Assembly (NCBI RefSeq): GCF_056712565.1
Contig: NZ_JBWXXM010000002.1
Reading direction: 5' to 3' (one strand)
Length of the DNA: 64,000 nt
Source of the DNA: a plasmid
The translations under genes and the position numbers were made by a program. Shown piece after piece: positions 47,300-53,140 of this stretch; positions within the stretch are counted from its first letter, which is position 1; each line of letters begins with the position of its first letter. The notes below the pieces were generated by a model that was not told where the DNA came from, searched no databases, and worked only from the letters and a program-made list of their open reading frames with translations.

Positions 47300-47337
47300 G
47301 GGGAGCCCGCAGAATTCGGAAAAAATCGTACGCTAAG
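47300..47337. repeat. Tn1721-type 38-bp terminal inverted repeat (outer end)
   Basis: GGGGAGCCCGCAGAATTCGGAAAAAATCGTACGCTAAG. Confidence 0.85.
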
Positions 47338-49153
47338 GTTTTCCGGGCATCCGTAAGGGCCGAAACTTCCCGTCTTCCAGTCTGCGGCTCTGCCGCCAGA
47401 CGTAATCGCCGGTTAGGTTGATGTGCTCCCAGCCCAGCGGCGACAGGAATTGCAGCAGCTCGCCGTCCACCGGCTTGCCGGCCTCGACCAACCCCTGGGT
47501 GGCGCGTTCCAGGTACACCGTGTTCCACAGCACGATAGCCGCCGTCACCAGGTTGAGGCCGCTGGCCCGGTAGCGCTGCTGCTCGAAGCTCCGATCCCTG
47601 ATTTCCCCAAGGCGGTTGAAGAACACCGCCCTGGCCAGCGAGTTGCGCGCCTCACCTTTGTTCAGGCCGGCATGCACGCGGCGGCGCAGTTCAACACTTT
47701 GCAGCCAGTCCAGGATGAACAGCGTGCGCTCGATCCGGCCCAGCTCGCGCAGGGCCACGGCCAGTCCGTTCTGGCGCGGGTAGCTGCCGAGCTTGCGCAG
47801 CATCAGCGAGGCGGTGACGGTGCCCTGCTTGATCGAGCTGGCCAGGCGCAGGATGTCGTCCCAGTGGGCACGCACGTGCTTGATGTTCAGGGTGCCGCCG
47901 ATCAGCGGGCGCAACGTCGGGTAGGCTTGCACGCCCTGCGGCACGTACAGCTTGGTTTCGCCGAGGTCGCGGATGCGCGGCGCGAAGCGGAAGCCTAGCA
48001 GGTGCATCAGGGCAAAGACGTGATCGGTGAAGCCGGCCGTGTCGGTGTAGTGCTCCTCGATCCGCAGGTCGGACTCGTGGTACAGCAGGCCGTCGAGCAC
48101 ATAGGTGGAATCGCGGACGCCGACATTCACCACGCGGGTGCTGAACGGCGCGTACTGGTCGGAGATATGGGTATAGAACAGCCGTCCCGGCTCGCTACCG
48201 TACTTCGGGTTGACGTGCCCGGTGCTCTCGCCCCGGCCACCCGCGCGGAAGCGCTGGCCATCGGAGGATGAGGTCGTGCCGTCGCCCCAGTGGGCGGCAA
48301 AGGCGTGGCGATACTGGTGGTTGACCAGCTCGGCCAAGGCCGCCGAATAGGTTTCGTCGCGGATGTGCCAGGCTTGCAGCCAGGACAGCTTGGCGTAGGT
48401 CAGGCCGGGGCTCGACTCGGCCATCTTGGTCAGCCCGAGGTTGATCGCATCACCGAGGATTGCGGACAGCAGCAACGTCCTGTCTTTGGCCTCGGCCCCG
48501 TCCTTCAAGTGGGTGAAGTGGCGGCTGAAGCCCGTCCAGTCGTCCACGTCCATCAGCAGTTCGGTGATCTTGATGCGCGGCAGTAACTGGCTGGTTTGGT
48601 CGATCAGCGCCTGCGCCCGATCCGGCACCGCCGCATCCAGCGGGGTGATTTTCAGCCCTGACTCGGTGAGGATGGCATCGGGCAGCTCGTTGTCCTTGGC
48701 CAGGCGGGTGACGGTGGCCAACTGCTCGTCCAGCAGCTGCAAACGCTCTTCCAGGTACTGGTCGCTGTTCGGGTTGATCGCCAGGGGCAGGGCCTGCTCG
48801 CGCTTGAGTGCGGCGAACTTCTCGGCCGGCAGCAGGTAGTCGTCGAAGTCGCGGAACTGCCGCGAGCCCTTGACCCAGATGTCGCCGGAGCGCAGGGCGT
48901 TCTTCAGCTCGGACAGGGCGCAGATTTCGTAGAATTTCCGGTCGAGGCCTTCCGGGGTGATCACCAGCGGCTTCCAGCGCGGCTTGATGAAGGCCGTGGG
49001 TGCATCGGCCGGCACCTTGCGCAGGTTGTCGGCGTTCATCTCACGCAGGGTCTGCACGGCTGCCAGCACGCCTTGCGCGGCCGGCCCGTGCTGTTCCCCA
49101 ACTTTTCGCTCGGCGAAGAGTATGAACATGCGCCGCCGGCGACGAATCGCCAA
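47333..49153 (-). pseudogene. tnpA: Truncated transposase copy tnpA' (3' two-thirds of a Tn21-subgroup tnpA)
   Basis: ORF 606 aa whose homology to Tn21-type TnpA begins about residue 25; stop lies within the IR. Confidence 0.75.
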
Positions 49154-49179
49154 ATCTCACCGTATCTCCCGAGCGGACG

Positions 49180-49480
49180 ATTTCGCACCGGTCTGCCCGT
49201 CGAAGGGCTTGCGATCGAACGGGGCGACCTTTTCTATGCATGTCCGCGAGCCAGCGTCTTTTATGGCACGGCGCTCGACGCCGACCTTCGGACGCGCGGC
49301 GTAAGCACGCTTGTCATGGCCGGGATAAGCACCACCGGCGTTGTTCTTTCAAGCGTCGCCTGGGCTAGTGATGCGGACTACGACGTGCGTTTGGTCCAGG
49401 ACTGCTGCTACGACCCGGATCGGGATGCCCACGAAGCTCTGTTGCGTTCCGGGTTCGGCGGACGTGTACAGGTCGTGTAA
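49180..49480 (+). pseudogene. Possible isochorismatase-family gene fragment
   Basis: C-terminal stretch ...TLVMAGISTTGVVLSSVAWASDADYDVRLVQDCCYDPD resembles the isochorismatase-like fold; fragmentary. Confidence 0.25.
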
Positions 49481-49617
49481 TTTTCGGGCCTCGCATGATC
49501 GCGGCCATAGCCGCAGGTGGATTGGTGCGAGGCAGGGCCAGTCCAAGTCAGGGTGCGGTCATCGCGGCGCCTGCAACTCTCAAAAACCCATCGCCGTAGC
49601 GGAGGTCTTGTAATCGC

Positions 49618-50502
49618 ATGTCATTACGCACGCCCGATTTATTGTTCACAGCGATAGCACCTGCCATTTGGGGCAGCACCTACATTGTCACCACCCAATA
49701 CCTGCCGAACTTCTCACCGATGACGGTCGCGATGCTGCGGGCGTTGCCGGCGGGTTTATTGCTCGTGATGATCGTCCGACAGATTCCAACGGGAATCTGG
49801 TGGATGCGCATCTTCATCCTCGGCGCACTTAATATTTCGCTATTCTGGAGCTTGTTGTTTATTTCGGTCTACCGCCTGCCGGGCGGGGTCGCGGCGACGG
49901 TAGGCGCTGTGCAGCCGCTGATGGTCGTGTTCATCTCTGCCGCTCTGCTAGGTAGCCCGATACGATTGATGGCGGTCCTGGGGGCTATTTGCGGAACTGC
50001 GGGCGTGGCGCTGTTGGTGTTGACACCAAACGCAGCGCTAGATCCTGTCGGCGTCGCAGCGGGCCTGGCGGGGGCGGTTTCCATGGCGTTCGGAACCGTG
50101 CTGACCCGCAAGTGGCAACCTCCCGTGCCTCTGCTCACCTTTACCGCCTGGCAACTGGCGGCCGGAGGACTTCTGCTCGTTCCAGTAGCTTTAGTGTTTG
50201 ATCCGCCAATCCCGATGCCTACAGGAACCAATGTTCTCGGCCTGGCGTGGCTCGGCCTGATCGGAGCGGGTTTAACCTACTTCCTTTGGTTCCGGGGGAT
50301 CTCGCGACTCGAACCTACAGTTGTTTCCTTACTGGGCTTTCTCAGCCCGGGGACCGCCGTGTTGCTAGGATGGTTGTTCTTGGATCAGACGCTGAGTGCG
50401 CTTCAAATCATCGGCGTCCTGCTCGTGATCGGGAGTATCTGGCTGGGCCAACGTTCCAACCGCACTCCTAGGGCGCGTATAGCTTGCCGGAAGTCGCCTT
50501 GA
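49618..50502 (+). CDS. pecM: EamA-family transporter PecM-like
   Basis: ORF 294 aa, 10 hydrophobic segments; convergent with tetA as in Tn1721. Confidence 0.8.
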   Translation: MSLRTPDLLFTAIAPAIWGSTYIVTTQYLPNFSPMTVAMLRALPAGLLLVMIVRQIPTGIWWMRIFILGALNISLFWSLLFISVYRLPGGVAATVGAVQPLMVVFISAALLGSPIRLMAVLGAICGTAGVALLVLTPNAALDPVGVAAGLAGAVSMAFGTVLTRKWQPPVPLLTFTAWQLAAGGLLLVPVALVFDPPIPMPTGTNVLGLAWLGLIGAGLTYFLWFRGISRLEPTVVSLLGFLSPGTAVLLGWLFLDQTLSALQIIGVLLVIGSIWLGQRSNRTPRARIACRKSP

Positions 50503-50533
50503 CCCGCATGGCATAGGCCTATCGTTTCCACGA

Positions 50534-51733: not shown

Positions 51734-51781
51734 GTCTGGCCTCCGGACCAGCCTCCGCTGGTCCGATTGAACGCGCGGATT

Positions 51782-51830
51782 CTTTATCACTGATAAGTTG
51801 GTGGACATATTATGTTTATCAGTGATAAAG
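51782..51830. promoter_or_regulatory. tetO operators in tetA-tetR divergent promoter
   Basis: Palindromic CTTTATCACTGATAAG (51782-51797) and TGTTTATCAGTGATAAAG (51813-51830). Confidence 0.7.
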
Positions 51831-51838
51831 TGTCAAGC

Positions 51839-52489
51839 ATGACAAAGTTGCAGCCGAATACAGTGATCCGTGCCGCCCTGGACCTGTTGAACGAGGTCGG
51901 CGTAGACGGTCTGACGACACGCAAACTGGCGGAACGGTTGGGGGTTCAGCAGCCGGCGCTTTACTGGCACTTCAGGAACAAGCGGGCGCTGCTCGACGCA
52001 CTGGCCGAAGCCATGCTGGCGGAGAATCATACGCATTCGGTGCCGAGAGCCGACGACGACTGGCGCTCATTTCTGATCGGGAATGCCCGCAGCTTCAGGC
52101 AGGCGCTGCTCGCCTACCGCGATGGCGCGCGCATCCATGCCGGCACGCGACCGGGCGCACCGCAGATGGAAACGGCCGACGCGCAGCTTCGCTTCCTCTG
52201 CGAGGCGGGTTTTTCGGCCGGGGACGCCGTCAATGCGCTGATGACAATCAGCTACTTCACTGTTGGGGCCGTGCTTGAGGAGCAGGCCGGCGACAGCGAT
52301 GCCGGCGAGCGCGGCGGCACCGTTGAACAGGCTCCGCTCTCGCCGCTGTTGCGGGCCGCGATAGACGCCTTCGACGAAGCCGATCCGGACGCAGCGTTCG
52401 AGCAGGGACTCGCGGTGATTGTCGATGGATTGGCGAAAAGGAGGCTCGTTGTCAGGAACGTTGAAGGACCGAGAAAGGGTGACGATTGA
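51839..52489 (+). CDS. tetR: Tetracycline repressor TetR, class A
   Basis: 216 aa from ATG 51839 (MTKLQPNTVIRAALDLLNEVG...). Confidence 0.9.
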   Translation: MTKLQPNTVIRAALDLLNEVGVDGLTTRKLAERLGVQQPALYWHFRNKRALLDALAEAMLAENHTHSVPRADDDWRSFLIGNARSFRQALLAYRDGARIHAGTRPGAPQMETADAQLRFLCEAGFSAGDAVNALMTISYFTVGAVLEEQAGDSDAGERGGTVEQAPLSPLLRAAIDAFDEADPDAAFEQGLAVIVDGLAKRRLVVRNVEGPRKGDD

Positions 52490-52787
52490 TCAGGACCGCT
52501 GCCGGAGCGCAACCCACTCACTACAGCAGAGCCATGTAGACAACATCCCCTCCCCCTTTCCACCGCGTCAGACGCCCGTAGCAGCCCGCTACGGGCTTTT
52601 TCATGCCCTGCCCTAGCGTCCAAGCCTCACGGCCGCGCTCGGCCTCTCTGGCGGCCTTCTGGCGCTCCTGCTGCGGCGTCCGCTCGTGGGCCGTGGCGCG
52701 GGTCCGCGCGCCGGCCTCGTGCGCCTGGCGCTCGCGGGCGAGGTCCAGGGCGGCCGTCTTCACGTTCTGCCTTGCGCAGATGAGATA

Positions 52788-52825
52788 GGGGAGCCCGCAG
52801 AATTCGGAAAAAATCGTACGCTAAG
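52788..52825. repeat. Internal Tn1721-type 38-bp IR
   Basis: Identical to the IR at 47300-47337. Confidence 0.85.
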
Positions 52826-53140
52826 GTTTTCCGGGCATCCGTAAGGGCCGAAACTTCCCGTCTTCCAGTCTGCGGCTCTGCCGCCAGACGTAATCGCCGG
52901 TTAGGTTGATGTGCTCCCAGCCCAGCGGCGACAGGAATTGCAGCAGCTCGCCGTCCACCGGCTTGCCGGCCTCGACCAACCCCTGGGTGGCGCGTTCCAG
53001 GTACACCGTGTTCCACAGCACGATAGCCGCCGTCACCAGGTTGAGGCCGCTGGCCCGGTAGCGCTGCTGCTCGAAGCTCCGATCCCTGATTTCCCCAAGG
53101 CGGTTGAAGAACACCGCCCTGGCCAGCGAGTTGCGCGCCT
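52821..53140 (-). pseudogene. tnpA: 3' end of Tn1722-part tnpA, cut by IS26
   Basis: About 105 C-terminal codons identical to the end of tnpA' at 47333-47652; homology stops at IS26 left end 53141. Confidence 0.7.

Follow-up and report, generated by a model that had tools for sequence, protein, structure and literature searches.

The 353-bp direct repeat around the tet(A) module of an IncHI2 plasmid is very probably the residue of the Tn1721 direct repeat, remodelled by IS26

Two identical stretches of DNA bracket the tetracycline resistance genes of an IncHI2 plasmid, which raises the question of where this repeat came from and whether recombination across it could remove or multiply the genes that it encloses. 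We assessed this in the window, by which we mean the whole 64,000-nucleotide stretch analysed (contig NZ_JBWXXM010000002.1 of assembly GCF_056712565.1). The original prediction had placed identical direct repeats, each consisting of the 3′ end of tnpA and an inverted repeat (IR), at 47300-47652 and 52788-53140, and was to fall if re-alignment revealed differences between the copies. Direct string comparison revealed none (353 bp, 0 mismatches), and the copies do lie in direct orientation on the two sides of pecM, tet(A) and tetR(A). To the left the match extends by one base, an A at 47299 and 52787 (354 bp), and to the right not at all. Self-megablast of the 64-kb window returned the pair as 47299-47652 and 52787-53140 at 100%; the only other long internal repeat was the pair of IS26 copies. 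A perfect match of 353 bp within 64 kb cannot have arisen by chance.

Both copies start with the same 38-bp IR, GGGGAGCCCGCAGAATTCGGAAAAAATCGTACGCTAAG, named IRRII in the first copy (47300-47652, + strand), where it is followed by the last 315 bp of a tnpA remnant, and IRRI in the second (52788-53140, + strand), where the adjoining final 315 bp of tnpA belong to the original Tn1722 gene. Translated on the − strand, the second copy matched the Tn3-family transposase profile only at positions 869-954 of 954, the C-terminus, while the longer remnant containing the first copy matched positions 384-954 of 954 (E = 3e-258); together with the 38-bp IR, these matches bear out the predicted composition of the repeat. 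The second copy is cut at 53140/53141, and the next base opens the IS26 terminal repeat GGCACTGTTGCAAA. Another Tn3-family tnpA fragment (25130-25834) was considered as an extra recombination partner and dropped because its DNA identity is only 68%.

Between the repeats, tetR(A), tet(A) and pecM are found between IRRI and a 5′-truncated tnpA that ends at IRRII. The tnpA remnant forms an open reading frame (ORF) at 47333-49153 (− strand; Tn3-family transposase profile, E = 3e-258), in which tnpA homology stops at 49085, where the canonical repeat of 1,786 bp also ends. It is followed by a fragment at 49073-49480 (+), a Tn1721 passenger with weak hydrolase family matches that collinear records annotate as an isochorismatase-family cysteine hydrolase, and by a pecM-like EamA/DMT transporter at 49618-50502 (+; TIGR00950, E = 2e-55), which homologous records annotate as an EamA family transporter. 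The tet(A) efflux pump gene (50534-51808, −) is intact, scoring 892 bits against NF012193 (cut-off 840) and covering that profile fully (1-394). The repressor gene tetR(A) (51839-52489, +) encodes a full-length protein of 216 aa (NF010319, 304 bits, cut-off 265); sequence comparison showed that it is not the 24-bp deletion allele and that it has D at position 182, compared with G in three relatives. Between tetR and IRRI lies an 80-aa ORF (52521-52763, −) that is part of canonical Tn1721 and had no family match in the profile search; it is also annotated in the records L001-L005, and its public labels are ‘transposase’ or ‘relaxase’.

Tn1721 belongs to the Tn21/Tn501 subgroup of the Tn3 family and consists of Tn1722 (IRL-mcp-res-tnpR-tnpA-IRRI) and a tet region (tetR-tetA-pecM), which terminates in a second, 5′-truncated copy of tnpA and a further right end (IRRII). 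A direct repeat of 1,786 bp is formed by IRRI with the 3′ end of tnpA and IRRII with the truncated tnpA. The literature on the element reportedly includes Schmitt 1979, Schoffl 1981 and Allmeier 1992.

As a reference for intact Tn1721 we used L005 (CP057748.1), an unrelated IncFIA plasmid in which self-comparison returned the 1,786-bp direct repeat at 100%. Window positions 47296-53140 were collinear with this Tn1721 (99.95% over 5,845 bp), 47300-49085 matched its tnpA 3′ region (6993-8778) at 100%, and 57212-58356 matched 11488-12632 at 100%, such that all retained parts show 99.95-100% nucleotide identity. The order IRRII-truncated tnpA-pecM-tetA-tetR-IRRI, the IRs and the 5-bp target duplication are likewise those of Tn1721. 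The two differ in that 4,142 bp of Tn1721 (the 5′ part of tnpA, tnpR, res and the 5′ part of mcp) are replaced in the window by a 4,071-bp block in which two IS26 copies enclose a passenger segment, X. L005 7346-11487 has no counterpart in the window, where the functional Tn1722 core (intact tnpA, tnpR, res and mcp) is missing and the profile search matched Tn3-family transposases only as C-terminal fragments. The window element, unlike Tn1721, is non-autonomous, unable to move by itself because it has no intact transposase or resolvase. On its IRRII side all 1,786 bp survive (47300-49085); on its IRRI side IS26 begins at 53141 and leaves no more than 353 bp. The two-sided 1,786-bp repeat is absent from the window, which marks a truncated Tn1721 derivative and not a different element. 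The original prediction had not recognised in this pair the canonical Tn1721 repeat, which IS26 has here shortened from its normal 1,786 bp.

The outer ends of the element are preserved. IRRII (47300-47337, +) is an exact 38-mer, the same as that at 52788, and matches IRRII of the intact Tn1721 (L005 1505-1542), and the internal IRRI (52788-52825, +), also an exact 38-mer, corresponds to L005 6993-7030. IRL (58319-58356, −; GGGGGAACCGCAGAATTCGGAAAAAATCGTACGCTAAG on that strand) is inverted, has 3 mismatches to the right IR and is identical to IRL of L005. The pentamer TTAAA stands at 47295-47299 and again at 58357-58361, immediately outside IRL. The element thus has three 38-bp IRs, two of which (IRRI and IRRII) are identical and point the same way while the third (IRL) is divergent and inverted, and 47300-58356 is flanked by a perfect TTAAA duplication of 5 bp. 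Tn1721 has been described in the same terms: its tet region lies between three such IRs' two identical members, IRRI and IRRII, which share one orientation, its IRL diverges, a transposase is truncated, and duplications of 5 bp occur (PMC5736529). The IRL-type repeat at 58319-58356 and the perfect duplication identify 47300-58356 as a single Tn1721 insertion in the IncHI2 backbone; both flanks are IncHI2 backbone, common to many IncHI2A plasmids.

The first IS26 copy (53141-53960, 820 bp, transposase on the − strand) has 14-bp terminal IRs at both ends and encodes an IS6-family transposase (NF033587, E = 2.5e-82). The second (56392-57211, −) is in direct orientation and identical to it over 820/820 positions, each copy showing GGCACTGTTGCAAA at both ends and a single IS6-family DDE transposase. 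Segment X (53961-56391) lies between them, and the second copy is followed by the 3′ part of the Tn1721 mcp gene (orfI; 57212-58167, +), truncated at its 5′ end by IS26 (MCP C-terminal match, E = 8.5e-79). An 8-bp target duplication, the mark of a simple insertion or a compound transposon, was found neither around the first copy (flanks GCGCGCCT and ACAGAAAA) nor around the second (flanks CGATTATT and ATATTTCC), which fits deletion or replacement mediated by IS26 and not a simple insertion.

We consider it very probable that the 353-bp pair is the residue of the canonical Tn1721 direct repeat, remodelled by IS26, and that it could serve RecA-dependent amplification and deletion; the structure and origin of the region can be read from its nucleotides, and no observation speaks against the structural part. 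One Tn1721 entered the IncHI2 plasmid backbone, creating the TTAAA duplication, and later IS26-associated events exchanged the Tn1722 core (tnpA 5′ part, tnpR, res and mcp 5′ part) for IS26-X-IS26. On the IRRI side, only IRRI and 315 bp of tnpA survived, hence a repeat of 353 bp. RecA-dependent unequal exchange between the copies would tandemly amplify a 5,488-bp unit and raise tet(A) dosage. The reciprocal outcome would be excision of the unit with loss of pecM-tetA-tetR, a deletion that would also take 1,433 bp of truncated tnpA, the cysteine-hydrolase fragment and the small ORF beside tetR.

Amplification of the Tn1721 tet region is recA-dependent according to Wiebauer 1981, as cited in PMC9550176. 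In the latter study, natural tet(A) loci amplified in tandem via flanking direct repeats of 400-1800 bp, a range that the present 353 bp falls slightly under, and 31 of 51 tet(A) loci were flanked by identical repeats of 458-1,786 bp. The 353-bp repeat probably recombines several-fold less often than the 1,786-bp one in intact Tn1721. The predicted loss of pecM-tetA-tetR through homologous recombination agrees with the published behaviour of Tn1721, and work on the same element makes it reasonable to expect that the module may be unstable in this plasmid too. Deletion was the only outcome that had been predicted; amplification is the better documented one.

Direct repeats around tet(A) are a documented substrate for tandem amplification, which can bring a one-step rise in tetracycline and tigecycline resistance (PMC9550176), and they may plausibly also allow the module to be lost. 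Because it combines a tetR(A) of wild-type length with a flanking repeat of 353 bp, this plasmid probably keeps some capacity for amplification and deletion, likely less than that of intact Tn1721. The region is an ordinary resistance-plasmid structure, already described, that implies no new biology, and its value is practical, not conceptual: reading it as a single Tn1721, remodelled by IS26 but still framed by an intact target duplication, leads to correct annotation and helps to trace the IncHI2 lineage with the same insertion site.

We searched for the exact deletion product using queries composed of IncHI2 flank, IRRII, the 353 bp and IS26. No contiguous match was found among 72,556 plasmids (1,453-bp construct) or 5,426 complete E. 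coli genomes (535-bp construct), and in the nearest matches IS26 lay elsewhere in the tnpA remnant. The missing product is weak evidence against such recombination because the 353-bp precursor junction occurs in just one other plasmid, pF700-1.

Loss of the tet module could instead proceed mainly through IS26 activity, with the 353-bp repeat a passive scar of little consequence for instability, an account that we regard as a real possibility but lean against. By intramolecular replicative transposition or by deletion of neighbouring DNA, the IS26 at 53141 could reach into the tnpA remnant on the IRRII side. Three sister IncHI2 plasmids that have Tn1721 inserted at the same site (L006, L007 and L008) lack the tet module, and in them an IS26 of the same orientation abuts the IRRII-side tnpA remnant at +901, +1456 and +60 from the IR start, respectively, the +353 junction occurring in none of the three. 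IS26 transposition and recombination are very active in IncHI2 plasmids (PMC9019673), and the lack of 8-bp target duplications around the IS26 copies of the window points to earlier IS26-mediated rearrangements. The sister structures would, however, also arise if the 1,786-bp remnant on the IRRII side recombined homologously with a tnpA on the IRRI side that IS26 had cut at +901, +1456 or +60, and they do not separate the two routes because either would yield them. IS26 cuts the tnpA beside tetR-IRRI at many different positions in public plasmids, and the routes are not mutually exclusive.

Besides the window, an IS26 cut at +353 was found in one plasmid only, pF700-1 (deposited twice, as NZ_OY757096.1 and NZ_OY754444.1), a complete and independent IncHI1B plasmid of E. 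coli from a broiler in France that is collinear with window positions 47299-53960 (1 mismatch in 6,662 bp). The two share the stretch from IRRII to IS26, including the 353-bp junction, and the outer IRs, but pF700-1 has another backbone with the flanks CAGTA and CAGTT (4/5 match), a blaTEM-1 segment between its IS26 copies, and an mcp remnant that is 85 bp longer at its second IS26 junction. The exact structure of the whole of 47300-58356 was absent from the plasmid collection and the E. coli genomes, the best match being pF700-1 at 82% coverage. Tet modules with partial tnpA on either side and abutting IS26 have been reported in tandem arrays and to de-amplify (bioRxiv 10.64898/2026.03.06.710075; PMC9550176). 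The window shares this layout, but differs from the reported amplifying units in that the two outer ends of Tn1721 and the target duplication are retained, and in its +353 cut point, found elsewhere only in pF700-1.

An identical +353 IS26 junction within complete outer IRs is present in two unrelated backbones, that of the IncHI2 window and that of the IncHI1B pF700-1. The defective element (IRRII...353-bp junction...IS26-X-IS26...IRL) may move as a unit when given a Tn1721/Tn501-type transposase in trans, which we consider unlikely; alternatively, the junction may have spread by homologous exchange between resident Tn1721 copies. Either, if true, would depart only slightly from the known biology of the Tn3 family.

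It is highly improbable that the second 353-bp segment reflects an error of short-read assembly, in which a repeat was collapsed or mis-joined. The 353-bp and 820-bp (IS26) repeats exceed the usual length of short reads, and mis-assembly is common in regions with several IS26 copies, but pF700-1 has the same contiguous order of IRRII, tet module, IRRI, 353 bp and IS26, and the IRRII-tet-IRRI order is that expected for Tn1721; the pF700-1 record and the collinearity with intact Tn1721 led us to reject the artefact. Origin of the copies from two independent Tn1721/Tn1722-type insertions flanking the tet cluster in this plasmid has next to no probability, for although published models derive Tn1721 itself from two Tn1722 copies around the tet region (PMC5736529), that event is older than this plasmid, as the collinearity with L005 and the shared tnpA deletion endpoint at 49085 indicate, and TTAAA flanks IRRII and IRL, the ends of a whole element and not of two separate insertions, so that target duplication and collinearity effectively refute it.

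Segment X contains, by family matches, a chlorite-dismutase fragment, a thermonuclease-like ORF, an IS66-type transposase fragment and a cupin ORF, with 21-bp iteron-like repeats at 54269-54347. At least 80% of the segment was found in 445 plasmids, mostly from Klebsiella.

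We compared the two 353-bp segments at 47300–47652 and 52788–53140, for which the original prediction had claimed identity in direct orientation, and found them to match at 100% in both direct comparison and self-megablast. Re-alignment revealed no differences between the copies across the 353 bp; the match reaches 1 base further left, which is a coincidence, and 0 bases further right. A perfect match of this length cannot be of chance origin, and the only other long internal repeat detected by self-megablast of the window was a pair of IS26 copies. Both segments open with the 38-bp inverted repeat (IR) GGGGAGCCCGCAGAATTCGGAAAAAATCGTACGCTAAG, beyond which they encode, on the minus strand, the C-terminus of a Tn3-family transposase. 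The outer copy, with its IR (IRRII) starting at 47300, runs rightward into a long tnpA remnant whose ORF (47333–49153, minus strand) covers positions 384–954 of the 954-position Tn3-family transposase profile. The other copy, on the IRRI side, stops abruptly at 53140, and an IS26 of 820 bp (53141–53960) begins at the next base with its terminal repeat, GGCACTGTTGCAAA. The stretch separating the two copies holds the remainder of the tnpA remnant, a fragment of a cysteine-hydrolase gene, a pecM-like gene for an EamA transporter (49618–50502, plus strand), tet(A) (50534–51808, minus strand), tetR(A) (51839–52489, plus strand) and a small ORF of 80 aa. Both tet(A) and tetR(A) score above their curated cut-offs, tet(A) covering the whole profile and tetR(A) being full-length at 216 aa.

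Because a third 38-bp repeat, inverted and with 3 mismatches, lies at 58319–58356, and the pentamer TTAAA occurs directly outside both 47300 and 58356, the region 47300–58356 is a single transposon insertion that duplicated 5 bp of its target. On both flanks lies backbone DNA also present in many Salmonella and E. coli IncHI2A plasmids. The architecture is exactly that described for Tn1721, which combines the basic transposon Tn1722 with a tet region that terminates in a truncated transposase, carries three 38-bp IRs (IRRI and IRRII, which are identical and flank the tet region in direct orientation, and a divergent IRL) and generates 5-bp direct repeats upon insertion (PMC5736529). Relative to the intact Tn1721 of plasmid CP057748.1, window positions 47296–53140 correspond to 1501–7345 at 99.95% and 57212–58356 to 11488–12632 at 100%, whereas reference positions 7346–11487 (the 5′ 2.6 kb of tnpA, tnpR, res and the 5′ part of the methyl-accepting chemotaxis gene mcp) have no counterpart; the window instead has two IS26 copies with a passenger segment between them (53141–57211), the second IS26 (56392–57211) being directly followed by the 3′ part of mcp. 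Self-comparison of the intact Tn1721 gave a 1,786-bp direct repeat at 100% identity, composed of IRRI with the tnpA 3′ end and IRRII with the truncated tnpA. Since the IRRII side of the window retains the full 1,786 bp (47300–49085), as in intact Tn1721, while the IRRI side has only 353 bp, the 353-bp repeat is the canonical Tn1721 repeat made shorter by IS26. No 8-bp target duplication was present at either IS26 copy, pointing to a deletion or replacement mediated by IS26 and not to simple insertion. The sequence shows a defective element in which neither tnpA nor tnpR nor res is intact.

The original prediction also held that recombination between the copies would delete pecM-tetA-tetR, making the module potentially unstable, and this interpretation is correct as far as stated. 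The pair is the already known, textbook repeat of Tn1721 as eroded by IS26, and is of low interest beyond correct annotation and a modest practical bearing on tet(A) amplification or loss. By established principles, unequal exchange between the two 353-bp copies, dependent on RecA, would either duplicate and amplify a 5,488-bp unit or excise it; what excision would leave is IRRII, 353 bp and IS26, with pecM, tet(A) and tetR(A) lost along with 1,433 bp of tnpA remnant. Given the general dependence of recombination on homology length, exchange should be several-fold less frequent at the 353-bp than at the 1,786-bp repeat. Tn1721 amplification was reportedly found to be recA-dependent by Wiebauer in 1981. 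Natural tet(A) loci undergo tandem amplification via flanking direct repeats of 400–1800 bp, often transposase fragments, and 31 of 51 wild-type tet(A) loci were surrounded by identical repeats of 458–1,786 bp (PMC9550176), the upper value being the repeat length measured here in intact Tn1721. Tandem arrays of a unit with the same tet module, and de-amplification, have also been reported (bioRxiv 10.64898/2026.03.06.710075). The wild-type tetR(A) allele has been linked to productive amplification (PMC9550176), and sequence comparison found no 24-bp deletion in tetR(A) of the window. Codon 182 of this gene (window 52383) encodes Asp, vs. Gly in CP057748.1, plasmid pF700-1 and a sister IncHI2 plasmid (L002); the Asp182 allele (WP_001493764.1) also occurs in Korean pig Salmonella IncHI2 plasmids (L001). 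At 820 bp, the paired IS26 copies offer recombination a longer substrate than the 353-bp repeat does.

Searched against 72,556 plasmids and 5,426 complete E. coli genomes, a synthetic deletion junction matched nothing contiguously, though this absence is weak evidence because the precursor junction, with IS26 cutting tnpA at +353 from the start of the 38-bp IR, was found in only one other plasmid, pF700-1 (NZ_OY757096.1, deposited twice). The tet module was absent from three sister IncHI2 plasmids that share the insertion site, and in these IS26 adjoins the remnant on the IRRII side at +901, +1456 and +60. These structures could result from IS26-mediated deletion or could be products of repeat-mediated recombination in precursors truncated at +901, +1456 and +60, and the sequences cannot separate the two. 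Many sister IncHI2 plasmids have IRRI cut after 7 or 1 bp (L001 10295 and L002 9289, equivalent to window 52794 and 52788) and joined to a pRiA4b ORF-3 gene or a Tn5393 fragment carrying strB; they have no second repeat copy, so this direct repeat does not flank their tet module. An unrelated C-terminal fragment of a second Tn3-family transposase (25130–25834, minus strand, profile positions 750–954), adjoined by a serine-recombinase-like ORF (26288–26929), was rejected as a recombination partner of the Tn1721 repeats, as only ~68% DNA identity to Tn1721 tnpA makes it too divergent.

Compared to the window, pF700-1 has 85 bp more mcp (13649–13733) at the second IS26/mcp junction (57211/57212), and the junction at window 57212 is shared by the IncHI2 plasmid pCFSAN083829_1. 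This difference suggests that a small deletion occurred next to IS26, or that the history of this junction is separate in the two plasmids although they have the +353 junction in common. Within pF700-1, an IncHI1B plasmid, CAGTA (2497–2501) and CAGTT (14879–14883) flank the same defective element; their 4/5 match may reflect a target duplication that has decayed, a hint that the element moved as a unit, or may be a coincidence.

The two IS26 copies in the window are identical and directly oriented, and together with the 2,431-bp passenger segment they bracket (53961–56391) they form a pseudo-compound transposon or translocatable unit. The segment contains a chlorite-dismutase fragment, a thermonuclease-like ORF, an IS66-type transposase fragment and a cupin ORF, and at least 80% of it was found in 445 plasmids, mostly from Klebsiella. 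It also includes three iteron-like CCGTCTATTACCCACC-type units with 21-bp spacing (54269–54347). The IRL of the intact Tn1721 in CP057748.1 abuts exactly at the equivalent of window 54271, so that the window holds the uninterrupted version of that site within its own Tn1721 remnant. Elsewhere, the plasmid backbone carries a 441-aa ORF with a HipA N-terminal domain (19505–20830), a candidate type II toxin kinase.
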